Source: a bacterium
GTDB lineage: Bacteria > Patescibacteriota > Microgenomatia > UBA1400 > UBA12108
Direction of reading: 5' to 3'
NCBI GenBank assembly: GCA_021788365.1
Contig: JAJYKS010000003.1
Coordinates: 6,283-70,282 of the forward strand
Length of the DNA stretch: 64,000 nt
A model generated the notes under the pieces. It saw only the letters and a list, made by a program, of their open reading frames with translations, was not told the DNA's origin and did no database searches. The number at the start of each line of letters is the position of its first letter. The first letter of the stretch is position 1. This document shows positions 16,021 through 55,961 of this stretch, piece by piece. Both the position numbers and the translations under genes were made by a program.

Positions 16021-19000
16021 ATGGCTATCCAGGAAAAATTGGGAGAAGGGTTCGAGGCTGCACAGCATTCTGGGTTTGGTGAGGCGGGTGCGGATGGCGT
16101 GGTAAAAGAAGCGTTAAAACAGATCAAAAGGGATAAAGGCCCGAGTAAACTAAGCCCTGATCAGACGAGAACATTGTTGCTTCTAGACATATTGCGTACG
16201 CTATCTGCCGACAAAGGACTGACGGGAATAAAGTCGACCCTTGATAGGCTGGAGACACAATTTTCTGTCGCGGCAATGGCCTCTTTTGGCCAGAAAGATA
16301 TTGATGTCATCGCTGAACAGCTGGAAAGACAAGGAAAGAAATTCCAAGCTGATGTTGGAGGTCCGGACAAGGATTTATTGAAAGATGTGGGTTTGCTTGT
16401 TAGGAGTTCGAGGTGGGCGGATGCGTCGGCATTGGTTAGGCGCGCGATTGTTGACGCTAACACGAGGCGTGAAATTGATTCAACACAAAATACTCGATTA
16501 GTGCAGTCTGTTGATGATTTTGATTCTGCAAACCTTGGGCGGATGCGATCTCGTATCGTCGGACTAGAAATGGAACAGGTGGCGAGGAAAGTTCCCGGTA
16601 CTGGTGAGATAGCTAATGAAATGGAACGAGCCGCTCGACTAGAGGTTGGTGTGGCCAGAAGGTATGTGGAAATACTGAGGGGAACTCCACAGCAAGATGA
16701 TATAGACCCCAGCCTAAAGATAGACACGGCTGTTATAGCGGAGGCCGACATTAATTCCTTTGTAAATGACTTACATAGTAGGAGTCCTAAAATAGCAATG
16801 GCAGATGAGCGAAGGCTACGCCATTTTAAACAGGAGGTTACCAGCAATTGGAGCGATTTAAATACGGGGATAGATTTGGATGAATGGTCTCGTGGAAGCG
16901 ATAGCGTTCACCAGGACAGACAGCGCTATATTAGAGAGGCATCTGCTGTGGCGAACCACGTTTTGTTTCTGAAGGCAAGGGGAGAGGTAATACTGTCTAC
17001 GAACGAGGAGGAATACTTGAGGGCGGTGCAAAAGGCCACATCGGCGGTGAAGCGGTCGTGGGTGGAGGAAGCTGTCCATGAGGGGGAAGCAGCTACTCCC
17101 ACAGATGAATTGACCCCAGATGAGGTGCGAGAGTTAAAGAAACAGGCCTCCAACATTGGTTTACTGGCAGAGATGGGTAGTGGACAAGGGTTTGCGGATT
17201 GGGCTAAGCGGCAAAGGACGCGCAACCCGAGAGGGAGTTGGAATTTAGACACAGAAAGTTCTGAGGGGGGGTTTAGCTTTCAGGAAAAAATAATGGAGTT
17301 GCGCGACGCCGGAATGTTGGAGATTGAAGACGGGCAGATAGTGTGGCTAAAGGGTCCGGACGAGTTCTTTGGAGTAATGTCAGAACTAGCGCGTGACGTG
17401 TCGGCGATAGTGCCAGAAGTAAACCAAATACCCTTTTCCAGGTCACCTAAAGCTATGTTGTATCAGGCTTTGATGGAATCGGCGGCGCATCCAGGGAGTC
17501 GGGGGGATCTGGCTTGGGCGAAGGATGCGGTATTCCGTCTATACACAATGGGATATGTAAAGGAGGCGTTGTGGAAAAAGGGTGGAGACGTAGAGTCATT
17601 TGCCGGCGCCGCACTCGCCCTGTTGGGTCAAGGAGAGGATGATACTGTTTATTCATCTTTGTTTAGATTTCACGAGACGGTAAGAGAGAGGGGATCTACG
17701 GGTGAGATAGGGGATGAAATAATAAAAATTGACCTTCGGGATATGCTAGATTTTTCCGAGCGATACTCAAGAGTGAGGGATGGAAAGCGAAGCTGGTTGA
17801 ACGCGATTTCTGCTGGAGAGCTTAATAGCGGCGTGCACGATGCTACAAGTAAGCCACAACGAATGGAATTTTTTTATGATTATATGAAATGGGTGCTGGA
17901 TAGACAGCTGGACATGGGAGAGATAGATGCAAATACACATACAAAGAGAATAGCGGCTATTGGTACGTCTGCTCATGACAGAAAACACGAAAATATCTTT
18001 GATGTATATGGTCAGTATTATACAAATTTAGTAAAGGTGATGCAGTCTATCCAGCTGAGGTATGGCGAGGTGGCCGTAAACCAAGTGATTAGCGGGGGTG
18101 GATTCGAGTTTTGTAATCCCCCTGGGGGTGAGGCTCCCTATAAGTATCATAAAAATACCGTATGGAAGTTTTGTGCGCGGTATGTCCCCAATAATAAATT
18201 TGCTGAGTTTTTGGACGCTTACGACGGTGGAGTAGATATGGCCATGGTATCGTCGATTGCGTATGCACGCAAGGAGACAGTGCCGCATTTTTGCTTAGAG
18301 AGTAGTGAGCCGGGCGCCAATCCGGGCGCCGACAAATATTTCTTTGAAACCGAGGCAAATTTGTCCAATCGAGCTAAGTGGGCTAAGCAGTGGGTCAATT
18401 TTTGGAAGCCGGCTATGTTCGACAGCGATGCACATCGAGATGGAAAGTATCGCGATACTGATGAAATTAGGATGATCGAAGAAACGCAGGAGATTGCTGA
18501 GAGACAATTGAATAGTTGGTCGGCCGCCGACTTAGGATTCATTGACCATGTTGATTATACAAAATTAAGTGAGGCGAGTGGCTACGACTTTGAGCAAATT
18601 TTCCAAAGGAAAAACATTACTGATCCGAAAGAAAAGTTTAAATATGTAATTAAGAATTATGGATATAAGTATTTTGAGTGGAATGGGTTTCGATCTAAGA
18701 GGGTGGGAGATTTTTACACGAAGTACTTGCCGAAGAATTATGCGGGGGTGTACGGGGCAGCTATCAAGTTGAGTATGAATGCAACAAATGACGAATCTGC
18801 GTTTGAAGCGTCGCAAAACATTGACGCGTTTAGTGGCTCGGAGAAATTTATGGAAGATATTGACGTTGTGATGGAAAAGATGAATAAGCGGACCTGGCTC
18901 GGTATAAGAAAACCTAAAACTAAAGGCGGCAAGGGGTGGTTGAACGTTGACCAAAAAGGAGAAAAGGCAAAGATTGATTTGGAGGGCGACTTTGAGTTGT

Positions 19001-19365
19001 CTCTGAAAGGGCTTTTGCCAGGAGCGCTTTCGCGTACTTCTCTGGCTGGCTACTATCTGAGACATCGTGATCCCGACTGGATGCGCCCCGTTTTGTGGGA
19101 GCAAGCTTACGAGAGGGGGCAGATGCGACCAGAAACGTTTGAAAAGAGGATGCGTGATTATAAGGGGGAGATGTATTTTGGCGCGGGAGTTGCTGGTACT
19201 GGATTCCGGTGGGGATATGTTCCGATTTTGACGCCCTTTACTTTGGCAAGGGGCTGGTTTGTTGACAAATTACACCTGGATGTAGACGACTTCTGGTGGA
19301 TTACCAGGAAGGCAAACAAGGATTTTTGGGAAGAATTTAAAAAAGTAATGAATATTAAAGTTTAA
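16021..19365 (+). CDS. Very large (1114 aa) hypothetical soluble protein, divergent from the T4SS-like cluster
   Basis: A long uninterrupted ORF with no TM segment, P-loop or other recognised motif. Confidence 0.55.
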   Translation: MAIQEKLGEGFEAAQHSGFGEAGADGVVKEALKQIKRDKGPSKLSPDQTRTLLLLDILRTLSADKGLTGIKSTLDRLETQFSVAAMASFGQKDIDVIAEQLERQGKKFQADVGGPDKDLLKDVGLLVRSSRWADASALVRRAIVDANTRREIDSTQNTRLVQSVDDFDSANLGRMRSRIVGLEMEQVARKVPGTGEIANEMERAARLEVGVARRYVEILRGTPQQDDIDPSLKIDTAVIAEADINSFVNDLHSRSPKIAMADERRLRHFKQEVTSNWSDLNTGIDLDEWSRGSDSVHQDRQRYIREASAVANHVLFLKARGEVILSTNEEEYLRAVQKATSAVKRSWVEEAVHEGEAATPTDELTPDEVRELKKQASNIGLLAEMGSGQGFADWAKRQRTRNPRGSWNLDTESSEGGFSFQEKIMELRDAGMLEIEDGQIVWLKGPDEFFGVMSELARDVSAIVPEVNQIPFSRSPKAMLYQALMESAAHPGSRGDLAWAKDAVFRLYTMGYVKEALWKKGGDVESFAGAALALLGQGEDDTVYSSLFRFHETVRERGSTGEIGDEIIKIDLRDMLDFSERYSRVRDGKRSWLNAISAGELNSGVHDATSKPQRMEFFYDYMKWVLDRQLDMGEIDANTHTKRIAAIGTSAHDRKHENIFDVYGQYYTNLVKVMQSIQLRYGEVAVNQVISGGGFEFCNPPGGEAPYKYHKNTVWKFCARYVPNNKFAEFLDAYDGGVDMAMVSSIAYARKETVPHFCLESSEPGANPGADKYFFETEANLSNRAKWAKQWVNFWKPAMFDSDAHRDGKYRDTDEIRMIEETQEIAERQLNSWSAADLGFIDHVDYTKLSEASGYDFEQIFQRKNITDPKEKFKYVIKNYGYKYFEWNGFRSKRVGDFYTKYLPKNYAGVYGAAIKLSMNATNDESAFEASQNIDAFSGSEKFMEDIDVVMEKMNKRTWLGIRKPKTKGGKGWLNVDQKGEKAKIDLEGDFELSLKGLLPGALSRTSLAGYYLRHRDPDWMRPVLWEQAYERGQMRPETFEKRMRDYKGEMYFGAGVAGTGFRWGYVPILTPFTLARGWFVDKLHLDVDDFWWITRKANKDFWEEFKKVMNIKV

Positions 19366-21478: not shown

Positions 21479-24286
21479 TTAGAATCCTGGTAGCTTAATA
21501 ATGCTGCCTGCCACTATTCGTAGTAGTACTCCCGCAAAAATAAGGAAGAGAAGACCCGTAACCGCGGCGGTGAAAAGCTCACGACCCTTCTTTATCTTTT
21601 CCTGATCTCCACCCGCAGTCATAATCTGTACTGTGCCCACGAACATGACAATTAAGGCAATCGCGCCCGCAATGCCACCCGCAAAGGTGAGGAGCACTGT
21701 TGTGAGACTACTCCCTATAGGGATGCATCCAAGTGCGGTGTCAATTGCATTCTCGCCACAGCGACCGTGAGGGTTGATGGTCCCCCTTGGTGAAAGTGTG
21801 GGTGTCGGTGCGGCTGACGCGGCTGCGCTCGCGTTTTGACTGGTTGCGAGATTGTAAACGGCGAGTGCGACGGCAAAGGCACCGGGACGATCATTCCCGT
21901 AGGGGGTCGGCTGGCCGGCCGTGAGATCACCATGATAAAGCAAATACATGTCTGTGTGACGAGCGTCTAGCATGTTGGTGGCGTAGGGGTCGTCGTCGCC
22001 AATAAACTGTCGCGGACAGCCACTGAAGGGTATGGGGAAGGGGTATCCCAGCTGGCAGTTGCTGTTCCCCCCACCGTTGAAGTCTGAGATATCGCCAATA
22101 AGTTCTTGGGTGTTGCTATGCGGATGATTCAGGAGTGTTTTCCCTGCGTTTATGGCAGATGTTTCTAATCCGCCATCTCGACTTGCGGCCCCACCATTTT
22201 GTACAGAAACGGTAGTGGGATCCCCGCCGTCGGTGAATGCGGAGCTTCCCTCTTCGAAGTGGATGCCGGCGATTACTTCGCAAGGGATACCCGTTGCTTG
22301 TTCTGCGGCAGCGTACGCTGACTCGAGTTTGGGATTTAGCTTGCCGTCAACAAACATGGCGGAATTTTTGACGACGTTTGTAGCCTCTAGAAGCGGTGCT
22401 TGCCAGGAAGAATCTTTAATAAGCGCTGCAAATTTGGTTCCGTCACAAAGTCCTGCGGTAGTTGTCGCCTGCTGACACCCTATACGCGTACCAAGCGCGT
22501 AAGCCTCTATTGAGGTTGAGAGCGGGGCGGAGTAGTCAGGATCGCTACAGGTAAATAAGCCCACCGCCCGCTGGGAGTTGGCTATGCTCATAGGCTTCCC
22601 GGCATAGGGAAAAACTCCCTGGTCGTTTACCGTATTAGACATGTTGCTGTTGTGCTCTGCTGCTTGTGTGAGGGTCGGCTCTGTGTCGCGGGTGTTATAG
22701 ACCATTTGTTGGAGGTCGGCTAAACTCTGACCCATCAAGTCAGGAATACTAAGATAGTGGAACGTTACCATGTCTACCATGTCGGTGGGGCGGGGATAGA
22801 TGGCGTTTAGGAAGTCCTGGATTATGTTGGATGTTGTGTACGCTCCACCGCTTTCTTTGGTCACATCGGCTGGTTGTATTTTATAACAGTCACTATCCAT
22901 AGAATCTTGATAGTCATAAATAAATCCTAGTTTGTTGAGCGTAAGTGGATTGTAGTTGTCCGCAACATAATGAAACGTTACGGGCTTGGTCGCGTCTCCA
23001 CATTTTACGACGTTGTCGTGGAGTTCGACGTCTAATTTCGCGGTGATTTTTGATGGTATGCCGGCAGGTAGTGTGCTTAAGAAGTATCTTGCGAGCGGGT
23101 TTTTAACAACAATGTCTTGAAAGATCTTCATTGCTTGGTCGAGTGGAAATGTAGTAAAGAGGTCATCCATGGCGGCAGCCCATGCCTGGTGAACCGTGGG
23201 GTCTGTATAGAGCGCTTTTGACTTTGCAAAATAGGGGAATGGACACTTTAATCCTGGGCAGCACCAAGCCCATAGACAAACTGATTTGCGCGTGTATCCA
23301 CGCTCGTTTGATGGGGGATACATGGGTGCTTGGGATAGGTCGACTGCCCAAGTGGCTGTAGGGTTTTCGTAGTAGGTGTTACAAAGGTCTTTTTCCGCCG
23401 CGGATGTGTCGATATTTTCACCCCCGAGGGTTGTTAGAAATTGCTCGTGGGCGTAGGTAATCCCATATGCGTCGCCACCGACGTTGCCCGGTAGTTCGCG
23501 AGCTATTTCGATCAAGGTCTTGCCATTTGGAGTCTGGAAATTCCAATTCACCCAGCCTAGGGGCCACTCCCCCGTGCCGGCGAGTGTGTCCTTTGTAAAC
23601 GCAGCCTGCTTTACCACAATGGCCTGCCGAACGAGGCGGTCACACATTGTCAGGGATAGGTCCAACATGCCGTTTGTGATTACATTGTCAGAACTTGAGT
23701 TGTAATCGTAGCGATATGCCTCGTTTTGTAGTTTGGGGTAGACGAGTACATTTCCCAATGAATCGGTAGGCGTTGTCGACGATGTGGACGATGAGTCGGG
23801 GCCAGTAGGGTTTGAGAAGTCGGTGCTTTGGACGGCGTCGCTACTCGTGGGTATACCTGTGTATTTACATTTTCCTTCGATGCTTGCAGGATCGACAGGG
23901 ATAAGCTTTCCATTGGCGTCGTACTCCTTGGGGATAACTTTTACACATTGCCCATGACGCCCGCCCATGACGTCTGATCTGGCCGTGTTATCGGTATTGT
24001 TGGTACAAAGATCTACCGGTCCGGTACAGTCTGTCTCGCTCTGGCATGTTTTGGCGCGCTGATCGTGGCATATGTGGAGCGGGGGATAGCGTCGATTGCG
24101 ATCCTGATTTTCGAAGACGATGAGGTTTGTTGGTTTAATAAAACGGTAGAGGGGAAAGAAGCTTTTGTAGAACTCATCGGTTGTCGGTTCTGCCGGATCG
24201 ATTGCAAATATCTTGGTGGCGTGGAGAAGGGACACAATGAGAAGGAGTAGTGTTGTAGCTAGGATGCGAAACCGTATCGAGCGCAT
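21479..24286 (-). CDS. Large secreted Cys-rich protein with a C-terminal VirB2-like pilin domain (candidate pilus tip / adhesin subunit)
   Basis: The likely start is the signal peptide MRSIRFRILATTLLLLIVSLLHA. The C-terminal ~75 aa (GIAGAIALIVMFVGTVQIMTAGGDQEKIKKGRELFTAAVTGLLFLIFAGVLLRIVAG) is paralogous to the small pilins and to the C-terminus of the 33339-33941 protein. The start is coupled to the upstream pilin gene through a TGAtATG junction. Confidence 0.55.
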   Translation of the reverse strand: MRSIRFRILATTLLLLIVSLLHATKIFAIDPAEPTTDEFYKSFFPLYRFIKPTNLIVFENQDRNRRYPPLHICHDQRAKTCQSETDCTGPVDLCTNNTDNTARSDVMGGRHGQCVKVIPKEYDANGKLIPVDPASIEGKCKYTGIPTSSDAVQSTDFSNPTGPDSSSTSSTTPTDSLGNVLVYPKLQNEAYRYDYNSSSDNVITNGMLDLSLTMCDRLVRQAIVVKQAAFTKDTLAGTGEWPLGWVNWNFQTPNGKTLIEIARELPGNVGGDAYGITYAHEQFLTTLGGENIDTSAAEKDLCNTYYENPTATWAVDLSQAPMYPPSNERGYTRKSVCLWAWCCPGLKCPFPYFAKSKALYTDPTVHQAWAAAMDDLFTTFPLDQAMKIFQDIVVKNPLARYFLSTLPAGIPSKITAKLDVELHDNVVKCGDATKPVTFHYVADNYNPLTLNKLGFIYDYQDSMDSDCYKIQPADVTKESGGAYTTSNIIQDFLNAIYPRPTDMVDMVTFHYLSIPDLMGQSLADLQQMVYNTRDTEPTLTQAAEHNSNMSNTVNDQGVFPYAGKPMSIANSQRAVGLFTCSDPDYSAPLSTSIEAYALGTRIGCQQATTTAGLCDGTKFAALIKDSSWQAPLLEATNVVKNSAMFVDGKLNPKLESAYAAAEQATGIPCEVIAGIHFEEGSSAFTDGGDPTTVSVQNGGAASRDGGLETSAINAGKTLLNHPHSNTQELIGDISDFNGGGNSNCQLGYPFPIPFSGCPRQFIGDDDPYATNMLDARHTDMYLLYHGDLTAGQPTPYGNDRPGAFAVALAVYNLATSQNASAAASAAPTPTLSPRGTINPHGRCGENAIDTALGCIPIGSSLTTVLLTFAGGIAGAIALIVMFVGTVQIMTAGGDQEKIKKGRELFTAAVTGLLFLIFAGVLLRIVAGSIIKLPGF

Positions 24287-24287
24287 A

Positions 24288-24572
24288 TCAAAAACCAAAC
24301 TTAAACTGGGTAACCTGTACGCCGGTAATTGTTTGAATGGCGAGTAACACCAGCCATGAAATAATGGCAAGCGCAATCCCAACGACAGCGAGCGTGATAA
24401 TCTGTTTTCCCGCTTCGAGATTTTTTGTATCACTGCCGGCAGTTAGGATTTTAAATCCCCCCGAAAGAATCATTAGAAACGCGATGACTCCGATTAGGGG
24501 AATCGCTGCGGACAAGATGTTGCCAAAGTACGTGGGAAGGTCTGATAGTTGTGCTGCATCACCGACTGCCAT
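24288..24572 (-). CDS. VirB2/TrbC-like T4SS pilin paralogue 1
   Basis: 94 aa with two TM helices flanking the TAGSDTKNLEAGKQIITLAVVGIALAI motif. A TGCTATAAT box lies 6 nt before the ATG (leaderless). Confidence 0.65.
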   Translation of the reverse strand: MAVGDAAQLSDLPTYFGNILSAAIPLIGVIAFLMILSGGFKILTAGSDTKNLEAGKQIITLAVVGIALAIISWLVLLAIQTITGVQVTQFKFGF

Positions 24573-24754
24573 ATGGAGAGATTATAGCAGGAAGAAGTGG
24601 TCAATGATGTTTTGTCTCGCCGTGTTCTCAAATGAAAGACCGACCCACCTGGTCGCGTGCGCCACAATTTTGCAGTGCTCACAGCTTACTGGAACAACCA
24701 GTTCGACGCTCCGCGCTGAAAATTGCTCTGCACGCTCCCCTTTTGGCGAGTTAC

Positions 24755-26614: not shown

Positions 26615-26622
26615 AGGCGCTA

Positions 26623-26979
26623 TTATAAACCACTGTTGAGGATCTGCACTCCTGTAACAACTTGAATAATCTGGATGATCCAGTATGATCCGAAAAGTAC
26701 CAATAAACCAACTAACGCAGATGTGATGATTTTACTTCCTTCTTTGGTTTTTTCTGAGTTCCCAGCGTTTGCGACAATGGTAAAGCCGCCGAACACGATC
26801 ATAAAAAAGATAACAAGGCCAGCAGCAACGTAGACGTTGGGGAGGATGGCGTTTATCAGCTTGCTTGCATTGGGGTAGGTAGAGGTGGCAGTGGAATTGC
26901 CCTGGAACAGAAGCTTGTCGCCGAGATTGAAACCAGTAGCGGCCATAGTGAGGAAATTATAGCAGGTTGAGCTGGCCAA
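26623..26979 (-). CDS. VirB2/TrbC-like T4SS pilin paralogue 7 (first gene of the operon)
   Basis: 118 aa with GGFTIVANAGNSEKTKEGSKIITSALVGLLVLFGSY. A TGCTATAAT box lies 9 nt before the ATG. Confidence 0.65.
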   Translation of the reverse strand: MASSTCYNFLTMAATGFNLGDKLLFQGNSTATSTYPNASKLINAILPNVYVAAGLVIFFMIVFGGFTIVANAGNSEKTKEGSKIITSALVGLLVLFGSYWIIQIIQVVTGVQILNSGL

Positions 26980-27028
26980 TCACGATTTTATTGTTGCTCC
27001 TAAAACTTTTCGCTCAATTTATTGCTCG

Positions 27029-27057
27029 CGGAGATCTGGGCAGCGACGCTCGCCCAG
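27029..27057. promoter_or_regulatory. Near-perfect 28-29 bp palindrome in the divergent promoter region between the pilin array and the ECF sigma gene (candidate operator)
   Basis: gatctgggcagcg a cgctcgcccagatc forms 13 bp arms with a single bulged C, centred between the divergent starts. Confidence 0.45.
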
Positions 27058-27155
27058 ATCCATGTTCGCATTTAGAGTAGAATTCGCTCAAAGTTTCTTA
27101 ACGTATGCACAAAAATCGTTCTCGGCCAGTTTATGGGGGGGGTAGAATAGCGGGT

Positions 27156-27689
27156 ATGGAGATAATTGTTGAGGAAGTGTTGCAAGGTAAGCGGGGGGCG
27201 GCAACGCGCTTTTATCTCCGATATGCGCCCGGAGTTCGCCGTTATCTTTTGGCAAAATTGCCAGATGAACATATAGCGGAAAATTTGTTGCAAGATGTTT
27301 TTTTGTCGGCGTTTGATTCACTTGCCTTGTACCGCGGCGATTCGAGTGTTGCAACATGGCTTCTTTCGATTGCGCGACACGAGGTGGCCGATTACTGGCG
27401 GAAGTATTATGTGCGCAAAGCAGTCGAGAAGACGAGCCCACTCTTTGAGACGATTGTGTCGGAGATGCTTTCACCGGAATTTGCCTCATATAAGAGCAGA
27501 TTACGCATGCGGTTTATGCGGGCATATCACACTGTGGGCGTGCAATATCAGGATGTGTTGTCCTACCGCTATGAGCTCGGGATGAGTGTAAAAGAGATTT
27601 CTATAAAAATGAACCTGTCATTTAAGGCGACGGAGTCGCTCTTGTACCGAGCACGGCAGGCATTCGCGGCGGCGTATGAACAAGGATGA
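27156..27689 (+). CDS. ECF-type sigma-70 family RNA polymerase sigma factor
   Basis: The region 2 motif LLQDVFLSAFDSLALYRGDSSVATWLLSIARHEVADYWRK and region 4 motif QYQDVLSYRYELGMSVKEISIKMNLSFKATESLLYRARQAF are both present. A TAGAAT box lies 7 nt before the ATG (MEIIVEEV). Confidence 0.75.
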   Translation: MEIIVEEVLQGKRGAATRFYLRYAPGVRRYLLAKLPDEHIAENLLQDVFLSAFDSLALYRGDSSVATWLLSIARHEVADYWRKYYVRKAVEKTSPLFETIVSEMLSPEFASYKSRLRMRFMRAYHTVGVQYQDVLSYRYELGMSVKEISIKMNLSFKATESLLYRARQAFAAAYEQG

Positions 27690-27912
27690 ACAGGCGTTTC
27701 TTCGAGCTCTTGAGCAGAAAGCACACGAGCAGCGGAAATTGTCGAAAACCGAGATTCTTCCCCGATGGGCTGTGGGGGTAGGTGAGTGGTTGGTGGTAAA
27801 CCCCTGGCGGGTGTTGGTGCCTGCATCTGGAATTTTATATATCGCATTTCGGCTATTGTTGGGGGAGCAGTTTCGGACGCTGATTTTAGGGCTATTTGGA
27901 GGTTTTCGATGA
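27676..27912 (+). CDS. Small single-TM protein overlapping the sigma gene end (candidate anti-sigma factor)
   Basis: 78 aa with a charged N-terminus and a C-terminal TM helix. It overlaps the sigma gene by 14 nt and is coupled to the next gene through ATGA. Confidence 0.4.
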   Translation: MNKDEQAFLRALEQKAHEQRKLSKTEILPRWAVGVGEWLVVNPWRVLVPASGILYIAFRLLLGEQFRTLILGLFGGFR

Positions 27913-28223
27913 GCAGCAACCGTGCGGTGGGAGCATGGATCGCCTATGTGTGGATGACTACGTGGGCGGGGCTTGCCATTCACCCTTACCAGTCGATTAA
28001 GCGAATGGTGCTTGGGGATAGAGTACTCCTACCCGTTACGTTGTCGCCTACGTTATTCTTGCTCGCGTTGTTTGTGGTGGGGCGAGTGGGATCGCATTTT
28101 TTTAATCTTTATGGAATAACACGTGAATTGGTGGCATTTGTCTTGGGGAGTACGCTCATTGGGCTTCTCTTGTGGCAGGGGTTGCTTTTGGCTTTGATCT
28201 ACCGATTCTTCCGCGTGAAATGA
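27909..28223 (+). CDS. Three-TM membrane protein, third gene of the sigma operon
   Basis: 104 aa starting MSSNRAVGAWIAYVWMTTWAGLAI. Confidence 0.4.
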   Translation: MSSNRAVGAWIAYVWMTTWAGLAIHPYQSIKRMVLGDRVLLPVTLSPTLFLLALFVVGRVGSHFFNLYGITRELVAFVLGSTLIGLLLWQGLLLALIYRFFRVK

Positions 28224-28227
28224 TTTT

Positions 28228-28467
28228 TTGCCAATAGGCGACAGTAGTGGTATGCCTGTCGATTCTTGGACGCTGAGATTACATATTACTGGTGCGAGTC
28301 CGCGAAATGTTGAGGCTGAGAGTAGCCCCGCCCTCCCTGATGAGACGGAGTTTGTTTGGTTTGAGGGCACTCAGATGCCGCCAGAGGTTGAAGCGTTGCA
28401 AAATGCTCTTCGATCCGCCTCGCCCGCACTATTAGAAATGATTTTGGGTAAAAAAGATGGGGAATGA
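28228..28467 (+). CDS. Small hypothetical protein
   Basis: 79-aa ORF on the same strand between two operons. No motif recognised. Confidence 0.2.
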   Translation: MPIGDSSGMPVDSWTLRLHITGASPRNVEAESSPALPDETEFVWFEGTQMPPEVEALQNALRSASPALLEMILGKKDGE

Positions 28468-28484
28468 AGAAATAGTGGCAACGC

Positions 28485-29114
28485 TTGCTCCCTCTGGAGA
28501 ATAAAACGTTGTGCGATAATGTCCACATGTATTTACGAAAGACGGTGAAAGAACTCCAGCAGACTCCCTACGCGGCGAGGAAGACTGTTGCCGTTGACGA
28601 ACAAGACAATGAACTCGGTGAGACGCCACTTATTGTTGCACATCGTGATGGAGGTATAAAACATAGAGCTTTTTCGGTAATTTTGTATCGCGAGCGGGGA
28701 GGGAAAAAAGAGCTACTTCTGCAACTACGATCACAAGAAAAGCCGGTTTTTTGTGGGCTGTGGGCAAATACCTGCTGCTACAACATGGTACATGGCGAAG
28801 ACTACCTGGTGCGGGCGGCGACACGAACGAACGAAGAGATGGGAACAGCGGTGCAATCACAAGAGTTGCGAACACTGTATCGGTTTTCATACGAAGCGCA
28901 GGACGTTGAGGGGTGGTGCGAGAATGAGCTCGACACCGTAATTGTGGGGAAGTATGACGGCGTGGTGTATCCTGATCCGGCTGAGGCGGCTGACTATCGA
29001 TGGGTGGAGTGGGGAGAACTAAAAGGGGATATTGCGAAAAATCCAGATATATATGCGCCTTGGTTTAAGATGATTGTTGGGGATTCGCGAACTGAAGTTG
29101 TGTTTGGCGAATGA
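28485..29114 (+). CDS. idi: Isopentenyl-diphosphate delta-isomerase, type 1 (Nudix)
   Basis: The pattern HRAFSVILY...LLLQLRSQEKPVFCGLWANTCCYNMVHGE...CENELDTVIVGKYDG...YRWVEWGEL matches type-1 IDI. The start may be the internal MYLRKTV. Confidence 0.7.
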   Translation: MLPLENKTLCDNVHMYLRKTVKELQQTPYAARKTVAVDEQDNELGETPLIVAHRDGGIKHRAFSVILYRERGGKKELLLQLRSQEKPVFCGLWANTCCYNMVHGEDYLVRAATRTNEEMGTAVQSQELRTLYRFSYEAQDVEGWCENELDTVIVGKYDGVVYPDPAEAADYRWVEWGELKGDIAKNPDIYAPWFKMIVGDSRTEVVFGE

Positions 29115-29169
29115 TTTTCTGGCTTTTAGCGACACCGTTTTTTGCCCATAGAGATGTAAGGAGGGGTTT

Positions 29170-29373
29170 ATGTCTGATGCTAATGCAATTCTCGAAGAAG
29201 TTCTTCGCTTGCAGCAAGAGGGGGGAGTGGAAGCTTTGGATACTATACGGGAATTGCTTGATGGAAATGGTTTATGCATGATTGATGGTCGTTTGGAGCC
29301 CGCAGACGGTTACCATGAAAGCTATTTGTCTATCCATCCGCCTCATCCGGAACAATCAGGATTCGGTGGCTAG
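29170..29373 (+). CDS. Small hypothetical protein translationally coupled to mvk (TAGaATG)
   Basis: 67-aa ORF whose stop lies 1 nt before the mvk ATG. Confidence 0.3.
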   Translation: MSDANAILEEVLRLQQEGGVEALDTIRELLDGNGLCMIDGRLEPADGYHESYLSIHPPHPEQSGFGG

Positions 29374-29374
29374 A

Positions 29375-30214
29375 ATGGTGAGCGTTTTTGGGAAAGTGAT
29401 ACTTTCTGGTGAGCATGCGGTGGTGTATGGGAAGCCGGCCCTGGTCGCGAGCATAGATAAGGGAGTGTACGTACGTGCAAAGCGAGTACGGAGTCCTCAG
29501 CACTACAATAAAATTGTCGAGAAGGCTCGGGAGGTTGCCGGTGGCGACGAATACGTGTCGCTCCTCATTCACGGGGATTTACCGGTTGGTTCGGGGCTCG
29601 GGTCGAGTGCAGTGGTGGGAGCGGCGACGATTATGGCGGTCCGTGATCTCTTGGGTAAGCCCGTTACAGATAAGGACGAGCTGTTTTCGCTGACTATGGA
29701 GTGCGAGAGAGTTGCACACGGTAACCCTTCTGGCGTGGATCCGGCTGCAGTCGTGTATGGTGGGCTCATCCGTTTTATAAAAGGTGAACCGATCAAGCAC
29801 TTACACATCGCGAGACCGCTTTCTTTTCTCCTTGTTAATACGGGAAAGCCGATTGAGACTACGAGGGAGATGGTGGAGCTCGTGGCGGCAAATCCGAAGG
29901 CTCCGGTAGTGATAGAACAAATTGCAGACGTAACAGCGAGTATCCAAGCGGGACTCGAAAAGGGAAGTGACGTTACCACACTTTTTGACGAAAACGGAAA
30001 ACTTCTTGAACTTTTGGGAGTTGTGGGAAAAAAGGCAAAAGATCTGAGCGGAACCCTTCGAGGCATGGGGGCGAGCGTGAAAATAGTGGGTGCGGGCGGG
30101 GTAGGCAAGGGATCGGGGATGATGATGGTGCTTTCGCCGGACGTAGAAAAAATGAAGAATTTTTTGGATAATAGCAAAATCGATTATTTCGAGACGACGG
30201 TAGGGGGGCTATGA
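29375..30214 (+). CDS. mvk: Mevalonate kinase (GHMP kinase)
   Basis: FGKVILSGEHAVVYG is the N-terminal GHMP motif, and LPVGSGLGSSAVVGAATIMAV is the ATP-binding loop. The start is taken at MVSVFGK. Confidence 0.75.
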   Translation: MVSVFGKVILSGEHAVVYGKPALVASIDKGVYVRAKRVRSPQHYNKIVEKAREVAGGDEYVSLLIHGDLPVGSGLGSSAVVGAATIMAVRDLLGKPVTDKDELFSLTMECERVAHGNPSGVDPAAVVYGGLIRFIKGEPIKHLHIARPLSFLLVNTGKPIETTREMVELVAANPKAPVVIEQIADVTASIQAGLEKGSDVTTLFDENGKLLELLGVVGKKAKDLSGTLRGMGASVKIVGAGGVGKGSGMMMVLSPDVEKMKNFLDNSKIDYFETTVGGL

Positions 30215-31179
30215 GACAAGTGATTGCATCGGCACCTGGCAAACTCATGATTATGGGAGAGCACGCTGTCGTGTATGGTGCTCCGTGCATTGTTACCGCA
30301 GTGGACCAGCGAGTACGTGTTGCTGTGGGGCCGAACGGTGAGGGAGAGATACATGTAAAATCCCCCAATGTGGGTCTCGACGAGTACCACAAAAAATTGA
30401 GTCAGCTTGGTGTGGGTGAGGTACCCAAGTCTATGACTTTTGTGGAACATCTTATTAAACGTGTGTACAAGCGATATTCGATTTGTTCGGGGATAACGCT
30501 CACCACCGAGTCGGACTTTTCTTCGCTTTTTGGATTCGGGTCGAGTGCGGCCGTTGCGGTTGCGACAGCAGCCGCACTGTCGGAGTATTTTGGTTTAAAG
30601 ATGAGTAAACGAGACATTTTTGATGAAGCGTATGGAGCGGTCCTTGACGTGCAAGGTGTTGGAAGTGGATTCGACGTGGCTGCGTCTGTTTATGGCAGAA
30701 CGATTTACTATGTGACGCCAGGGAAGGTTATTGAATCAATTTTTACCGGAGAGTTGCCGCTTGTCGTGGGGTATACGGGGATAAAAGCGGACACGCCAAC
30801 TATTGTGCGGCAAGTGGCAGAACTGAAGCGTCGGGAGAAGTGGGTGGATTCGGTTTTTGGTGACATAACTACACTGGTGGAACGGGCAAAAATTGCGTTT
30901 CAAGGTAACAATTTTGTACAGTTGGGAAAACTCATGGATCGTAATCAAGAACTTTTGGGAACGCTCAATGTAAGCTCAGACATGCTCGACCAACTTATCC
31001 GCAGCGTACGTAAAGCGGGAACGTATGGGGCAAAGTTGTCTGGTGCCGGTGGAGGCGATTGCATGATTGCCATGGTTTCACCTGAGTTGCGGGACGCTGC
31101 CGGCGAAGCAATTGAGGAGGCTGGCGGTGCGTGGCTGAAGGTAAAAACGGGAGCCGAGGGAGTAAGATTGGAAGTATGA
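30211..31179 (+). CDS. Phosphomevalonate kinase (GHMP family, ERG8/MvaK2-type)
   Basis: The protein has APGKLMIMGEHAVVYG, GFGSSAAVAVATAAAL, and a C-terminal LSGAGGGDCMIAM that matches PMK SGAGGGDC. It overlaps mvk by 4 nt. Confidence 0.65.
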   Translation: MRQVIASAPGKLMIMGEHAVVYGAPCIVTAVDQRVRVAVGPNGEGEIHVKSPNVGLDEYHKKLSQLGVGEVPKSMTFVEHLIKRVYKRYSICSGITLTTESDFSSLFGFGSSAAVAVATAAALSEYFGLKMSKRDIFDEAYGAVLDVQGVGSGFDVAASVYGRTIYYVTPGKVIESIFTGELPLVVGYTGIKADTPTIVRQVAELKRREKWVDSVFGDITTLVERAKIAFQGNNFVQLGKLMDRNQELLGTLNVSSDMLDQLIRSVRKAGTYGAKLSGAGGGDCMIAMVSPELRDAAGEAIEEAGGAWLKVKTGAEGVRLEV

Positions 31180-32159
31180 AAAAAACTGCTAAGGCACACT
31201 CCAATATCGCGCTTGTGAAGTATTGGGGGAAGGGAGATGAAAAGTTGCGGTTACCGGTGAATTCGTCTGCGGCCATAGCGCTCGACAACCTTACTACAAC
31301 AACAACGGTAGAATTTCAAGAGAATCTTACGGCGGACCAGGTTGATTTAGTGGGAGAAGGGTTTGAGGTGGGGGAAGTAGAAAAAGTGTCGAAGCATCTG
31401 GACAGAGTGCGGTTGCTGGCGGGGATTACCACAAAAGCAAAAGTAGTATCACAAAATAGTTTTCCCAAGGCGGCGGGAATGGCATCGTCGGCGTCGGGTT
31501 TTGCAGCCCTCTCGGCAGCAGCAGCAGCTGCTGCAGGTCTGCAACTGTCGGAGAAGGAGTTGTCAATTTTGGCGCGGCAGGGGTCGGGGTCGGCGAGTAG
31601 GTCGGTTCCGGGAGGTGTTTCTGTATGGCATGCTGGGACAAGTAATGAAACTTCGTATGCAGAACAGATTGAATACCCAAAGGATTGGGATATACGTGTT
31701 CTGCTGGTTATGGCGGAGGACACATCGGCTAAAAAGGTGGGGAGTACGGAGGGGATGGCTCTCGCCACGACGAGTCCGTATTTCCAGATAGCGGTGAGGG
31801 AGGCAGAGGCAAATATAAAAAAATTGCAGGCCTCGATGGGTGCGGGTGATTGGCGGGCATTTGGGAAGGTTGTTGAAGATGAATGTTTCCGCCTACATAC
31901 GCTTTGTATGACAGAGACACCTAATATTTTGTATTGGCGGGGAGTGACGGTAGAGGTTTTTCAGAAACTTTTGTCTTTGCGCGAGAGAGGGGTAATGGCA
32001 TTTTTTACTGTGGACGCAGGTCCCCATGTCCACGTAGTGTGTCAGGGGAAAGACGTGACGAGGGTAAAGGCGGAGCTAGAACAGTTAGGTGGGATAAAAA
32101 CGATTATAGAGTGTGGGATAGGCGAGGGGGCAAGGCTTGTTGAACAACATTTGTTTTAG
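31176..32159 (+). CDS. mvaD: Diphosphomevalonate decarboxylase
   Basis: HSNIALVKYWGKGDEKLRLPVNSSAAIAL...FPKAAGMASSASGFAALSAAAAAAAGL carries the classic MVD motifs. The start is at MKKTAKA; ATGA overlap with the upstream gene. Confidence 0.85.
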   Translation: MKKTAKAHSNIALVKYWGKGDEKLRLPVNSSAAIALDNLTTTTTVEFQENLTADQVDLVGEGFEVGEVEKVSKHLDRVRLLAGITTKAKVVSQNSFPKAAGMASSASGFAALSAAAAAAAGLQLSEKELSILARQGSGSASRSVPGGVSVWHAGTSNETSYAEQIEYPKDWDIRVLLVMAEDTSAKKVGSTEGMALATTSPYFQIAVREAEANIKKLQASMGAGDWRAFGKVVEDECFRLHTLCMTETPNILYWRGVTVEVFQKLLSLRERGVMAFFTVDAGPHVHVVCQGKDVTRVKAELEQLGGIKTIIECGIGEGARLVEQHLF

Positions 32160-32165
32160 GAACAT

Positions 32166-32861
32166 ATGCTAGACAGAAATACCATTCCAAAACATGTGGC
32201 GATCATCATGGATGGGAATCGGCGGTGGGCGAAAAAACAAGGTTTAGCTGCTGTTGCTGGACACCAATATGCGATAGATCACGTTGTTGAAAATTTAATA
32301 GAGCGGGCGGGGGAGATGGGGGTCCAGTACCTGACCCTGTGGGCATTTTCGACGGAGAATTGGGGGAGAGAAAAGACTGAAGTAGATGGAATAATGAATA
32401 TGTTTCGCAATGCACTTGTGACGAAAGTAAAAAAATTTATCGAGCAAGGAGCGAGGTTGCGAATGATCGGGGATATGAGTCGATTTTCCCTCGACATACA
32501 AGAGGGAATGAAGAAGGCGATGGCGGCGAGCGAGAAAAATGACAAAATTATCGTGACATTTGCTCTCAACTATGGGGGGAGAGATGAGATTTTGCGGGCT
32601 ATCCGCAAAATCTCATCAGATTCTAGAAGAGAGATTCTAGAAGAGAGTGAATTTGAGAAGTATCTGGATACGGCGGGAATGCCGGATCCGGACCTTATCA
32701 TTCGTACGGGAGGGGAGCAGCGCATGAGTGGATTCCTTATGTGGCAAGCCGCATACGCAGAGTACTACTTTACCGAGACACTTTTCCCTGAGTTTACGCC
32801 AGAGAAATTTGACGAGGCGATTGCAGAGTACCAGAAGAGACAACGGAGATTTGGGAAGTAG
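32166..32861 (+). CDS. uppS: Undecaprenyl-diphosphate synthase (cis-prenyltransferase)
   Basis: HVAIIMDGNRRWAKKQGL...YLTLWAFSTENWGR are the hallmark UppS motifs. Confidence 0.9.
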   Translation: MLDRNTIPKHVAIIMDGNRRWAKKQGLAAVAGHQYAIDHVVENLIERAGEMGVQYLTLWAFSTENWGREKTEVDGIMNMFRNALVTKVKKFIEQGARLRMIGDMSRFSLDIQEGMKKAMAASEKNDKIIVTFALNYGGRDEILRAIRKISSDSRREILEESEFEKYLDTAGMPDPDLIIRTGGEQRMSGFLMWQAAYAEYYFTETLFPEFTPEKFDEAIAEYQKRQRRFGK

Positions 32862-32885
32862 GCTTATGCTGATCGCACCCCCACT

Positions 32886-32978
32886 CCCAAACGCAAAACT
32901 CGGTCTATCTGCGACTGGTGTCGCAGCGACCTAGAACTCGGGCTACCCGCCACTTGCGCTCCTGTTTTGCAACTTGTG
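32886..32978 (+). ncRNA. Copy 1 of a conserved ~91-93 nt 3'-UTR element (structured RNA / REP-like repeat)
   Basis: Core CCCAAACGCAAAACTCGGTCTATCT-[7 bp hairpin, TGGT loop]-CGACCTAGAACTCGGGCTACCCGCCACT..TTTTGCAACTTGTG. Hairpin arms are ctgcgac/gtcgcag. It starts 24 nt after the uppS stop. Confidence 0.5.
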
Positions 32979-32998
32979 AGCGTGGGCGTGATCAGTTT

Positions 32999-36764: not shown

Positions 36765-38504
36765 ATGGATACAACAACAGCAACGCTTTCCGGTACCCCA
36801 AACACACGTTGCTGGAGCCAAGCGGCTACGAGGGTTTTAGGGGGTGTTACTAGCGTTGTTGTTCTAACACTTACTTGTGAGGCAGATGGTGATCTCCTCG
36901 ACCTTTCTCAGGTAGGAGGAGAGCTTTTGGAGAGTGTGCTTTCTGCCATAGGTGGCATTCGCGAAGGACAAACTTTGCAGCCAACACTCGAACCTCTCCT
37001 ATCCAGCTTGGGTGACGGCGTTTGTGTGTCAATTCTCGTTATTGGTATTTTTGATCAGCGACTCATTCTTTGGGGGAAGGGTGAGGTGGGGTGTTACCTA
37101 TTGCGGGATGGACACTTCCTCCATCTTGCTGATTCTGCAGCGGCGGCGCGCTCTGTATCTGGAAACGTTATTTCTCATGACACTCTTCTTGCATATACAA
37201 CATCACTTACACATGCCTGTAGTCTTGCCGACATACGAAAGGCACTGGGAGAAGGTACAAAGGGTTTGGAGCTGTTGACTCCAAGCATCTTAGCCGCTCC
37301 GGACTCTGGGAGTATCGCAGCAGCAATGGTTGCGGTTGAGGGGACACCCCCAATAAAACCTGCGATAAACATACCACTATTTGTACGACGTGAGATTACC
37401 GGACAAGAGCGACGAATGCAGACCTATATTGGTATGGGACTTGTAGCGCTACTTGTTGTTCTTATTTCTGTGGGTTACGTACAACGATTAAAGACGCTTC
37501 GCGTCCAAACATATTCGACTTTGTCGCAGCGTGTAGGAGGGCTCATAACTGATTCGCGGCAAGTGGCTGTCTCTGACCCCGCGCGAGCGCGCACCGATCT
37601 CTCGGATGCCCGTACTGCTGTAGAGCAGTACCTCTCAGGAAAGCCTGGTGCACCTTATACGCTCCAAGCGCAGCAGCTCACTCAAAATATCACCTCAGCG
37701 GAGCAGTCAGTTTTCCAGGTGTATCCCGTGACACTGTCGCCATTTATTCCACTTTCGGTTGTTGCGCCACAACTGTCTGCCCCTCGCATGGCGACAGACG
37801 GGAAGGGCGACCTTCTTTTTGCTGACACAATGGGGAATATCATCGGTATTAGTACCAAAGATAAGTCTAAATTTAGTTATAGTACTCAAACGTATGGACC
37901 CGATATCTCTGTTGTAGGGGGAGACACCGGCACGTTTGGATTTACCGCAAAGGGAGTGGTCGTCATACCACCAAAGAAAACGGAAGCTACGGTTGCGATA
38001 CAGCCAGATGAGTTGTGGGGTGATATCACTATGATTGATACGTTCGCCGGGAACGTTTATCTTCTTGATCAGGGGAATGGTGAAATATGGAAGTATCCGG
38101 TCTTGGATACTGGGTTTGGTACGCGTAAACGGTGGTTTGCTGCCGGAATTACTCCCGATCTATCCAAAGTTGTGGATATGCGAGTGACGGGCGATGTGTG
38201 GCTACTTACTTCGACTGGGAAAATTCTCAAATATACTCGTGGTGCCCCCCAGAAATTTCCCATGACAGGGTTTCCATTTACGAGTACAGACGGGAGCCTT
38301 GCTAATCCACAAGCACTCGATGTTAATGGGAGCAGCGTTTATGTTCTCGAGTCCGGCGCGTCACGGGTAGACGTATTCCAGGATGATGGAACATACGTGA
38401 AACAATACACGGCGGATGACTTTGCAAAGGCAACGGATATCGCGATTGCAGATGGGAAAATGTACGTACTGGTGCCAAGCGGAGTGGAGTGGTTTGGGTT
38501 GTGA
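36765..38504 (+). CDS. Single-pass membrane protein: cytoplasmic N-terminal domain (PP2C-like?), TM helix, extracellular beta-propeller-like repeats
   Basis: TM helix MGLVALLVVLISVGYV. The C-terminal half repeats blade-like YVL(D/E)xG...(W/V)(K/F)Y motifs about 6 times. Confidence 0.5.
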   Translation: MDTTTATLSGTPNTRCWSQAATRVLGGVTSVVVLTLTCEADGDLLDLSQVGGELLESVLSAIGGIREGQTLQPTLEPLLSSLGDGVCVSILVIGIFDQRLILWGKGEVGCYLLRDGHFLHLADSAAAARSVSGNVISHDTLLAYTTSLTHACSLADIRKALGEGTKGLELLTPSILAAPDSGSIAAAMVAVEGTPPIKPAINIPLFVRREITGQERRMQTYIGMGLVALLVVLISVGYVQRLKTLRVQTYSTLSQRVGGLITDSRQVAVSDPARARTDLSDARTAVEQYLSGKPGAPYTLQAQQLTQNITSAEQSVFQVYPVTLSPFIPLSVVAPQLSAPRMATDGKGDLLFADTMGNIIGISTKDKSKFSYSTQTYGPDISVVGGDTGTFGFTAKGVVVIPPKKTEATVAIQPDELWGDITMIDTFAGNVYLLDQGNGEIWKYPVLDTGFGTRKRWFAAGITPDLSKVVDMRVTGDVWLLTSTGKILKYTRGAPQKFPMTGFPFTSTDGSLANPQALDVNGSSVYVLESGASRVDVFQDDGTYVKQYTADDFAKATDIAIADGKMYVLVPSGVEWFGL

Positions 38505-38527
38505 GGACGTGGCGTTCGTCTGGATTT

Positions 38528-38618
38528 CCCAAACGCAAAACTCGGTCTATCTGCGCCTGGTGGCGCAGCGACCTAGAACTCGCGCTACCCGCCACTGCGT
38601 TGTGTTTTGCAACTTGTG
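38528..38618 (+). ncRNA. Copy 2 of the conserved ~91-93 nt 3'-UTR element
   Basis: Same core as copy 1. Hairpin arms are ctgcgcc/ggcgcag (compensatory change). It starts 24 nt after the upstream stop. Confidence 0.5.
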
Positions 38619-38659
38619 AAATCCCGACTGCACGCCCTAATTTTTTCTTGAGGTAGAAT

Positions 38660-39101: not shown

Positions 39102-39127
39102 AATCCCGCAAAAGCGGGATTTTGCTG
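39102..39127. terminator. Bidirectional rho-independent terminator shared by smpB and the convergent candidate tmRNA
   Basis: AAAATCCCGC-AAAA-GCGGGATTTT is a perfect 10-bp-stem hairpin with T-runs on both strands. Confidence 0.7.
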
Positions 39128-40286: not shown

Positions 40287-40295
40287 AATGGTTTT

Positions 40296-55883: not shown

Positions 55884-55961
55884 GGCTTTGCAATGATTGT
55901 TTACTGTTTGATTTTGTTTTTTGTAGCGTAAAAACAGGACAACCCAACCGAGGTCACGTGT

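Follow-up and report, generated by a model that had tools for sequence, protein, structure and literature searches.

We analyzed a 64-kb stretch of contig JAJYKS010000003.1 (assembly GCA_021788365.1), hereafter the window, from a member of the Microgenomates, a group of the candidate phyla radiation (CPR). It carries a gene for a sigma factor of the extracytoplasmic function (ECF) type followed by two genes for small membrane proteins of 78 and 104 aa, and this triad is a translationally coupled module conserved throughout the Microgenomates. Judging from sequence, the only conserved motif near the sigma gene that resembles a promoter of other than the housekeeping type points at genes of the mevalonate pathway, and we consider it fairly probable that the sigma factor drives these promoters. 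A palindrome located between the sigma gene and a divergent pilin array, which a preliminary description of this DNA had proposed as an operator, is the tip of a dispersed hairpin repeat of about 175 nt that landed between two ancestrally back-to-back −10 boxes in this lineage only; we are confident that it is not a conserved operator.

The locus was compared with a set of loci designated by L-codes, comprising 80 from species-representative genomes with an alignment of the sigma factor and two from closer relatives (L089 and L090 are among them). Motif scans covered 6 kb on either side of each sigma gene as well as the whole window. The locus is also found, in identical or nearly identical form, in GCA_021842825.1, GCA_021839925.1 and three further assemblies, and the names attached to its homologues are Microgenomates, Woesebacteria or Levybacteria.

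The sigma module and the mevalonate motif

The sigma gene (27156–27689, plus strand) encodes 177 aa with sigma2 and sigma4 domains only, as in ECF (group IV) factors. Both regions had been recognized in the preliminary description, and the Pfam matches to Sigma70_r2 (E 1e-12) and Sigma70_r4_2 (E 3e-7) bear this out. The protein scored 69.8 against TIGR02937, the ECF superfamily model of NCBIfam, above the cut-off of 42.9; its best NCBIfam subfamily was SigM (TIGR02950), with 78.5 bits, which is far under the cut-off of 147.95 and thus does not place it in the SigM subfamily. Profile comparisons matched it to the solved ECF sigma factors AlgU, RpoE, SigW and CnrH (E 1e-15 to 1e-10), and more than 310 homologues were found, with an identity of approximately 65% across the Microgenomates. 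The ATG at 27156 was taken as the start codon because the public gene calls use it and because the resulting N-terminus (MEIIV...) aligns with all homologues.

The 3′ end of the sigma gene overlaps by 14 nt (27676–27689) the open reading frame (ORF) of a 78-aa single-pass membrane protein (27676–27912, plus strand), a candidate anti-sigma factor, in which a charged N-terminal helix with the conserved pattern EFLxxLxxRAxEQxKL precedes the transmembrane helix. This ORF is coupled in turn, through an ATGA (27909–27912), to that of a 104-aa membrane protein with three predicted helices (27909–28223, plus strand), a candidate co-anti-sigma factor or sensor. Overlap and coupling are both as previously described. 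The 78-aa gene was present beside the sigma gene in 73 of the 80 genome loci and the 104-aa gene in 74, and the triad, with its gene overlaps conserved, recurs in about 75 of them.

Both membrane proteins belong to uncharacterized families. Searches of Pfam, NCBIfam and PDB profiles returned no family and no anti-sigma relative for either of them, and the 254 homologues of the 104-aa protein, all from Microgenomates, are annotated as 'hypothetical' and carry no Pfam domain. The preliminary description had spoken of the usual anti-sigma arrangement, which holds for the arrangement of the genes and not for the 78-aa protein itself, in which no anti-sigma domain was recognizable in the same three resources. 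The class I factors are defined by an N-terminal anti-sigma domain (ASD) of ~80–90 aa or its zinc-binding anti-sigma (ZAS) form, frequently carrying HxxxCxxC; the 78-aa protein has about 40 cytoplasmic residues, no cysteine and no HxxxCxxC motif. Membership of the two proteins in the known anti-sigma classes is not established, because neither matches a Pfam, NCBIfam or PDB entry, and it is the gene arrangement that suggests an anti-sigma role for the 78-aa protein. On balance, we lean slightly toward the view that the two small proteins form an anti-sigma complex.

The motif that points at the mevalonate genes is bipartite, GAATGATT-N14-CGAC, and in the window's clade an ATG follows 8–10 nt later. 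Written in one reading direction, it consists of cGAATGATTT, 11–12 variable bases and (A/G)CGAC(T)A, the ATG elsewhere being usually no more than 40 nt on. When the 64 kb were scanned with a position weight matrix (PWM), only two sites exceeded the scores of all 30 shuffled sequences (mean of the shuffled maxima 6.3, highest 15.9), and both stand directly after the triad. Motif 1 (28216–28247, plus strand; 18.5 bits) includes (G)AAATGATT at 28217–28225 and CGAC at 28239–28242, with an ATG nine nt on at 28252; it overlaps the stop codon of the 104-aa gene, and its position after the triad is conserved in L001–L025. Motif 2 (29107–29138, plus strand), with GAATGATT at 29109–29116 and CGAC at 29130–29133, is the best site in the window (22.8 bits); it overlaps the stop codon of idi and precedes a 67-aa ORF and the mevalonate operon.

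Across the loci, 72 unique instances of the motif were collected, and the spacer between the two blocks is rigid. The ATG lies within 12 nt of the motif in 29 of 69 instances and within 40 nt in 60 of them, and the distance from CGAC to the start codon about equals that from TAnAAT boxes to their ATGs. The genes behind the motif encode HMG-CoA reductase (Pfam E 1e-120), isopentenyl phosphate kinase (IPK), isopentenyl-diphosphate isomerase (idi), an idi–uppS fusion and GHMP kinases. A relaxed pattern gave 81 instances in 0.89 Mb, 78 of which are within 3 kb of a sigma gene and 68 of which are followed on the same strand by a gene of the mevalonate pathway. In 74 of 86 sources, mevalonate genes or uppS are no more than 6 kb away from the sigma gene, and the linkage of the sigma gene to the mevalonate genes is much broader than its linkage to the pilin genes. 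The mevalonate genes are divergent from the sigma gene in one clade and in tandem with it in the other; the motif, which precedes the sigma gene in the Levybacteria-type clade and follows the triad in that of the window, points at the mevalonate genes in both. GAAT-N17-CGAC resembles the AAC/CGT architecture of ECF promoters, and we propose that GAATGATT-N14-CGAC is the promoter recognized by the sigma factor, in which GAATGATT would act as the −35-like and CGAC as the −10-like element.

The sigma gene itself appears, from its upstream sequence, to be driven by an ordinary leaderless −10 promoter of the housekeeping type. A TAGAAT box (27143–27148, plus strand) lies 7 nt upstream of the ATG at 27156, and a TA(G/T)AAT box is found 7–9 nt before the sigma ATG in nearly all 86 sources. 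This is the only promoter-like element at that place; the bipartite motif either is directed away from the sigma gene or is found beyond it, on the downstream side. Reading the motif in reverse would make it an autoregulatory promoter for the sigma gene, which is workable only in the Levybacteria-type clade; we rejected this reading because the transcripts that it implies in the window's clade would be antisense and would have no ORF downstream.

The putative target operon (29170–32861, plus strand), on which the public gene calls agree, runs from the 67-aa ORF (29170–29373) through genes for a GHMP-family kinase (29375–30214; Pfam GHMP_kinases_N), mevalonate kinase (30211–31179; TIGR00549) and diphosphomevalonate decarboxylase (31131–32159; TIGR01240) to the undecaprenyl-diphosphate synthase gene uppS (32166–32861; TIGR00055), all on the plus strand and the three TIGR matches above their cut-offs. 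Ahead of it lies idi (28527–29114, plus strand), for a type 1 isopentenyl-diphosphate isomerase of the Pfam NUDIX family that reached 121 bits with NF002995, just under the cut-off of 127. The 71-aa ORF directly behind motif 1 (28252–28467, plus strand) has no conserved family, and unrelated small ORFs occupy this place in other genomes; a single protein family behind motif 1 was therefore rejected. One of these ORFs, L019:7782–8050, shows a CxxC...CxxC zinc-ribbon pattern, which we take to recall the DUF35-type scaffold of archaeal thiolase/HMG-CoA synthase complexes.

Strains with 100% identical 78-aa proteins and 96% identical sigma factors carry different isoprenoid cassettes at this place, as seen when 28228–32861 is compared with L001:4846–7881. 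The cassette of the window and L004 consists of idi, the 67-aa ORF, the GHMP kinase, mevalonate kinase and decarboxylase genes and uppS, and that of L001, L002, L003 and L005 of a 123-aa ORF, idi, a 197-aa ORF, the isopentenyl phosphate kinase gene and uppS. Both versions retain the GAATGATT-CGAC motif, and the difference suggests that a cassette of the classical route and one of the IPK-type route have been swapped. In the Levybacteria-type loci L034, L039, L055, L060 and L067, the motif is also found before a gene of 164–192 aa, and these genes could be additional predicted members of the regulon; the L060 protein, the sole member scanned, gave a borderline match to Cupin_2 (26.8 bits, cut-off 27.2).

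The mevalonate pathway of Microgenomates and its synteny with cis-prenyltransferase genes have been documented (PMC6107057). Full-text literature searches returned no prior report of a link between a sigma factor and the mevalonate genes in CPR or of this motif, and the main text of the ECF reclassification paper (PMC7826278) mentions neither CPR nor mevalonate.

The palindrome and the insertion around it

On the other side of the sigma gene, the first gene of the pilin array (26623–26946, minus strand; PF18895 T4SS_pilin, E 2.6e-5) encodes 107 aa when read from ATG 26946. The divergent orientation of the two transcription units, reported in the preliminary description, is confirmed and is kept in the window's clade. 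The distance of about 175 bp reported between them applies to the longest pilin ORF, which begins at TTG 26979, 176 nt from the sigma gene; from ATG 26946 it amounts to 209 nt. The latter codon is almost certainly the real start because it agrees with the public gene calls (107 aa) and the starts of the orthologues, and because a −10 box lies between the two candidate starts. This box, TATAAT (26956–26961, minus strand; ATTATA as read on the plus strand), stands 9 nt upstream of ATG 26946 in a near-leaderless geometry that is the same in the orthologues.

Most of the orthologous gaps in the window's clade measure 16–41 bp, with the pilin and sigma start codons typically ~20–40 bp apart, and hold two back-to-back −10 boxes, each 7–9 nt from its own ATG (for example catGAAGTTAGTATAGCGTATACAGTATAATGAATAAAGTatg). 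The window contains at this place an additional segment of about 175 nt (26967–27141), a lineage-specific insertion that we call the type 1 hairpin repeat. It sits between the pilin and sigma −10 boxes and leaves both of them intact; the site is empty in L021, where it reads ATTATAGCAGG-GA-GTAGAATAGCGGGT, in L089 and in most orthologues. The insertion is bounded by an 18-nt outer inverted repeat whose left arm (26972–26989) pairs with the right arm (27112–27129) with 83% complementarity, and these two arms are the only matches to that sequence in the window. The 166 nt from 26968 to 27133 fold into one long imperfect hairpin of −59.7 kcal/mol (z = −4.6), and none of 200 shuffled sequences folded as well. 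At the right edge of the insertion, directly upstream of the sigma −10 box, there is a run of eight G (27135–27142), the length of which was identical in all six copies examined; a homopolymer of this kind could in principle vary in length and modulate the sigma promoter.

The reported palindrome (27033–27060) is the apex of this hairpin. It exists as a palindrome, with perfect arms of 9 bp (GATCTGGGC at 27033–27041 and GCCCAGATC at 27052–27060) around a 10-nt center; the 13-bp arms ascribed to it are obtained only with a 1-nt bulge, the second arm then being 14 nt long. Perfect 9-bp inverted repeats with a loop of up to 12 nt are found at six places in the window (12 overlapping hits versus ~2.9 in shuffled sequences), and because such repeats are only modestly above chance, the short palindrome alone is unremarkable; it is the surrounding 166-nt hairpin that departs clearly from random expectation. 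An intrinsic terminator at 27033–27060 was considered and rejected, as the terminator scan was negative and no T-run follows on either strand.

Besides the copy in the window, which is its only one there and corresponds to L001:3558–3733, type 1 copies were found at L001:13556–13663, L012:3593–3738 and L015:3576–3691. The second L001 copy, about 10 kb away and cut by the contig end, is 89% identical and has the palindrome intact (L001:13610–13640). In L012 and L015 the element is located between other pilin genes, and of the 29 hairpin pairs in these distant copies, 9 have changed on both sides in a compensatory manner. A covariance model of the element run against 0.9 Mb of related loci recovered five already known copies and no others, and Rfam at a permissive threshold gave nothing credible for 26900–27200 and 38480–38680. 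The exact 22-mer GCGACGCTCGCCCAGATCCATG had three matches in metagenome contigs of the Joint Genome Institute (JGI), all of them in a single unrelated high-GC coding region; these were dismissed as chance, and no additional copy of the element came to light.

Among the closest relatives (L001, L002, L003 and L005, with a sigma factor 96% identical), two of the eight substitutions of the 246-bp region fall in the left arm of the palindrome, and both weaken the dyad. The dyad is absent from the orthologous gaps of L007–L024 and L089, and unrelated sequence stands at the site in L090 and L011. The preliminary description had tied its dimeric-regulator operator to conservation of the palindrome in orthologous regions; it is not conserved there. 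With this result a false lead is removed, the palindrome being repeat DNA and not an operator.

The same junction holds other hairpin repeats in other lineages. In L090, the nearest outgroup, a different repeat (type 3) is located at exactly this place, and in L011 it is occupied by a third kind (type 2), related to 24573–24754 of the window. Since unrelated repeats occupy it in three lineages, the pilin–sigma gap can be viewed as a permissive landing site for dispersed hairpin repeats. The type 2 element of the window (24573–24754) lies in a gap inside the pilin array, upstream of the pilin gene 24288–24572, and its relatives are likewise found at pilin-flanking sites in other genomes (L011:5903–5967, in the pilin–sigma gap; L019:10876–10958; L022:9388–9478). 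Type 3 is present three times in the window (32885–32980, 38505–38655 and 55793–55886) and also at L001:10741–10869, L006:727–821, L021:3591–3694 and 11321–11418, and L090:920–1013. It is ~100 nt long, with invariant flanks (CGGTCT.TCT ... AGCGACCT) around a hairpin whose stem covaries, with double changes in 10 of 19 pairs, and it has no Rfam match. Each copy in the window lies ~20 nt past the stop codon of a plus-strand gene, which suggests a 3′-end or terminator-like element.

These small CPR genomes therefore hold at least three dispersed families of hairpin repeats, which have repeatedly landed between promoters. As in miniature inverted-repeat transposable elements (MITEs) and REP-like repeats, type 1 has copies at more than one genomic site, 18-nt inverted ends, a hairpin that spans the whole element and empty sites in relatives. 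The families share with REP/BIME, ERIC and Correia-type repeats (MITE-like) a size of 100–180 nt, a long imperfect hairpin with inverted ends, an intergenic position, several copies per genome, presence or absence that differs between close relatives and insertion beside promoters. Unlike those, they have no sequence relation to a known family (Rfam gave nothing), and no target-site duplication was identified.

The proposed circuit and its alternatives

We consider it probable, to about the same degree as the sigma–promoter assignment, that the sigma factor and its two membrane partners control the genes for isoprenoid and undecaprenyl precursors. In such a circuit, the 78-aa protein would use its cytoplasmic N-terminal helix to keep the sigma factor at the membrane, the 104-aa protein would be its partner or sensor, and release of the sigma factor would lead to more isoprenoid precursors and more undecaprenyl carrier. 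More tentatively, the signal may be a polyprenyl lipid. An equally speculative extension is that the module is a dedicated isoprenoid lipid-carrier homeostat of the Microgenomates, in which the 78- and 104-aa mini-proteins would keep the sigma factor at the membrane, respond to polyprenyl-phosphate or to an intermediate of the pathway within the bilayer, and release the sigma factor; once freed, this would fire the leaderless GAATGATT-N14-CGAC promoters of the genes for HMG-CoA reductase, idi, IPK, the mevalonate kinase operon and uppS.

Gene regulation in the uncultivated CPR is almost unexplored, and the locus offers a concrete circuit, with a sigma factor, two candidate partners and an explicit promoter sequence. 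The predicted regulon, the mevalonate pathway plus uppS, supplies the carrier lipid for cell-envelope synthesis, and if the proposal is correct it would be the first sigma regulon to be defined in the CPR. ECF sigma factors are usually orthogonal in E. coli, and for this reason the circuit can be tested without cultivating the organism.

Some observations weigh against these readings. The assignment of the motif to the sigma factor is suggested by co-location and promoter-like geometry; the sigma gene has no motif before it in the sense direction, and hence there is no sign of the autoregulation that is typical of ECF factors; and in the Levybacteria-type clade CGAC is followed by TATAAT, so that the site there could be a housekeeping promoter preceded by the site of an activator or repressor. 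The 78-aa protein, with its ~40 cytoplasmic residues, has no recognized anti-sigma domain, and its likeness to the YhdL/YhdK pair of Bacillus subtilis, discussed below, lies in operon order. Given the regions covered by the scans, targets beyond them, including pilus genes with a divergent motif, are possible. As for the insertion, no clear target-site duplication was found when its junctions were compared with the empty site of L021, no transposase was identified, although no search aimed at one was made, and the window has a single type 1 copy.

The preliminary description had further suggested that the sigma factor controls the pilus or secretion apparatus, and the results did not favor this. 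The comparison of synteny supported the pilin–sigma neighborhood in the window's clade (the pilin-divergent triad occurs in L006–L024, L089 and L090, and in L046, L080, L082 and L085) and not in the larger Levybacteria-type clade, where the triad is the same and stands without a pilin array within 6 kb. The pilin genes and those resembling a type IV secretion system (T4SS), including the T4SS-like genes 13193–15973 and 16021–19365, have ordinary TAnAAT boxes 6–9 nt before the ATG, and the PWM scan of the window detected nothing upstream of them. The generic ECF consensus GAAC-N15-17-CGTC matched six times in the window versus 5.5 expected, that is, at chance level. One GAAC-N-CGTC match lies inside the palindrome, on the minus strand and directed toward the pilin gene; it was rejected for being at chance level and in non-conserved DNA. 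The pilin array is thus a syntenic neighbor in one clade, not a demonstrated target.

The operator interpretation, in which the palindrome coordinates the divergent pilin and sigma promoters and a surface-signal-responsive sigma factor switches on the pilus/T4SS-like apparatus, can draw on the reality of the palindrome, on the divergent layout conserved in the window's clade and on the single GAAC-N-CGTC match that points at the pilin gene. It fails, however, because the palindrome is not conserved and no ECF motif precedes the pilin or T4SS-like genes: nearly all orthologous gaps (16–41 bp) lack the palindrome, which belongs to a repeat with copies elsewhere and has a mutated left arm in the closest relatives; the same gap is filled by three unrelated repeats in different lineages; the pilin and T4SS-like genes have housekeeping-type −10 boxes; and the Levybacteria-type triad does without a nearby pilin array. 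We therefore regard it as very improbable. It is also improbable, though to a lesser degree, that the insertion has been co-opted, either to relieve interference between overlapping divergent promoters or to supply an internal TAGAAT box (27079–27084) and an ATG (27105), giving a sigma factor 17 aa longer or a structured leader. This would be in line with an insertion placed exactly between the two −10 boxes with neither damaged, with the frame of ATG 27105 (a 194-aa ORF that includes the sigma gene), with the occurrence of a hairpin repeat in this gap in three independent lineages and with the compensatory changes that maintain the hairpin between distant copies. Most relatives, however, manage with a gap of 16–41 bp, the gene callers and the alignment of MEIIV... 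both favor the 177-aa start, and the inserts share no sequence relationship, as would be expected of a permissive landing site more than of a selected function.

An alternative for the motif is that GAATGATT-N14-CGAC is the binding site of a separate transcription factor in control of the mevalonate genes or a variant housekeeping promoter, the sigma gene adjoining through inherited gene order and having its regulon elsewhere. We consider this unlikely, if worth keeping in view. It would explain the TATAAT directly after CGAC in the Levybacteria-type clade and the lack of a sense-oriented motif before the sigma gene, and the mevalonate genes of Microgenomates cluster regardless of the sigma gene (PMC6107057). 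However, the fixed spacing of the blocks and a start-codon distance like that of TAnAAT boxes are those of −35 and −10 elements rather than of an operator; in the window's clade no TATAAT-like bases follow CGAC, and the ATG is too near for a later −10 box. Moreover, the linkage to the sigma gene outlasts the rearrangement between divergent and tandem orders across clades, and no further regulator gene recurs consistently across these loci. It is possible, although we doubt it, that the 78- and 104-aa proteins are not anti-sigma factors and have a membrane role of their own (for example, polyprenyl lipid handling), the sigma factor being controlled otherwise. The absence of matches to anti-sigma families or solved anti-sigma structures, the lack of cysteine and HxxxCxxC and the very short cytoplasmic part of the 78-aa protein would agree with this. 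Against it, short anti-sigma peptides of the CnrY/NepR type are established, and the two genes strictly co-occur and are translationally coupled with the sigma gene in more than 70 genomes. The order of a sigma factor, a single-pass and a small multi-pass membrane protein also matches that of sigM-yhdL-yhdK (PMC6827917).

The sigM-yhdL-yhdK operon of B. subtilis encodes a sigma factor, a single-pass anti-sigma factor and one further membrane protein, and its anti-sigma complex is responsive to undecaprenyl-phosphate (PMC6827917, PMC11081497). The system of the window resembles it in operon order, in having SigM as the best NCBIfam subfamily of its sigma factor (at a score far below the cut-off, as given above) and in a proposed output that concerns the supply of isoprenoid lipid carrier. 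It differs in that no autoregulatory promoter is seen before its sigma gene and its predicted targets are the mevalonate pathway and uppS, not cell-wall synthesis or carrier recycling. YhdL has ~358 aa, and the 78-aa partner is far smaller and without a recognizable anti-sigma domain. If our proposal is correct, the module would be a functional analog of SigM–YhdLK built from unrelated parts and wired to precursor synthesis instead of carrier recycling.

With the class I pairs RpoE–RseA and SigW–RsiW, the module shares the sigma2 and sigma4 domains, a co-transcribed membrane protein with a cytoplasmic N-terminus and, in the candidate motif, a bipartite promoter whose −35 element is short and of the GAA(T/C) type and whose −10 element is of the CG(A/T)C type. 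Unlike them, it has no anti-sigma domain, zinc motif or large extracytoplasmic sensor domain, its sigma promoter is of the leaderless housekeeping type and the predicted target promoters are leaderless as well. Class II anti-sigma factors (CnrY, NepR type) are short peptides that bind the sigma factor, and the very short cytoplasmic peptide of the 78-aa protein could likewise bind it with one or two helices; however, the PDB profile search found no similarity to CnrH–CnrY or to other solved complexes. In Myxococcus, CarQ–CarR is an ECF sigma factor with a membrane anti-sigma factor that governs an isoprenoid-derived pathway. The likeness extends to an ECF sigma factor with a membrane partner tied to isoprenoid-related genes, whereas CarQ targets light-induced carotenoid genes and not the core mevalonate pathway, and the partner proteins and the signal are unrelated. 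By analogy with these systems, the module may be seen as a variant of the theme of an ECF sigma factor with a membrane anti-sigma factor, in which the mevalonate synteny was already known and the sigma link and the motif would be new.

Other features of the window

On the minus strand, the pilin array consists of seven T4SS_pilin genes and a gene for a 984-aa protein with a C-terminal pilin domain, beyond which VirB4-like and PrgI-like genes are located. In the large protein (21479–24433, minus strand; ~935–984 aa), an extensive cysteine-rich extracellular region is fused to the C-terminal T4SS_pilin domain, and relatives keep a large pilin-domain protein (879–935 aa) at the end of the pilin array.

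Rfam at its gathering threshold reported, for the whole window, one tmRNA and one tRNA only. The tmRNA gene (39125–39529, minus strand; 97 bits) adjoins a probable smpB (38666–39100), and the tRNA gene is located at 44695–44777 (minus strand).

About 20 genes of the window have a TAnAAT box 6–9 nt before the ATG, which leaves no space for a Shine–Dalgarno sequence (for example at 15974–16020, 26615–26622, 38650–38665, 40280–40295 and 62115–62129). It thus seems that this genome normally makes transcripts that are leaderless or nearly so. Where two genes diverge, they share a gap of 40–50 bp with back-to-back −10 boxes.

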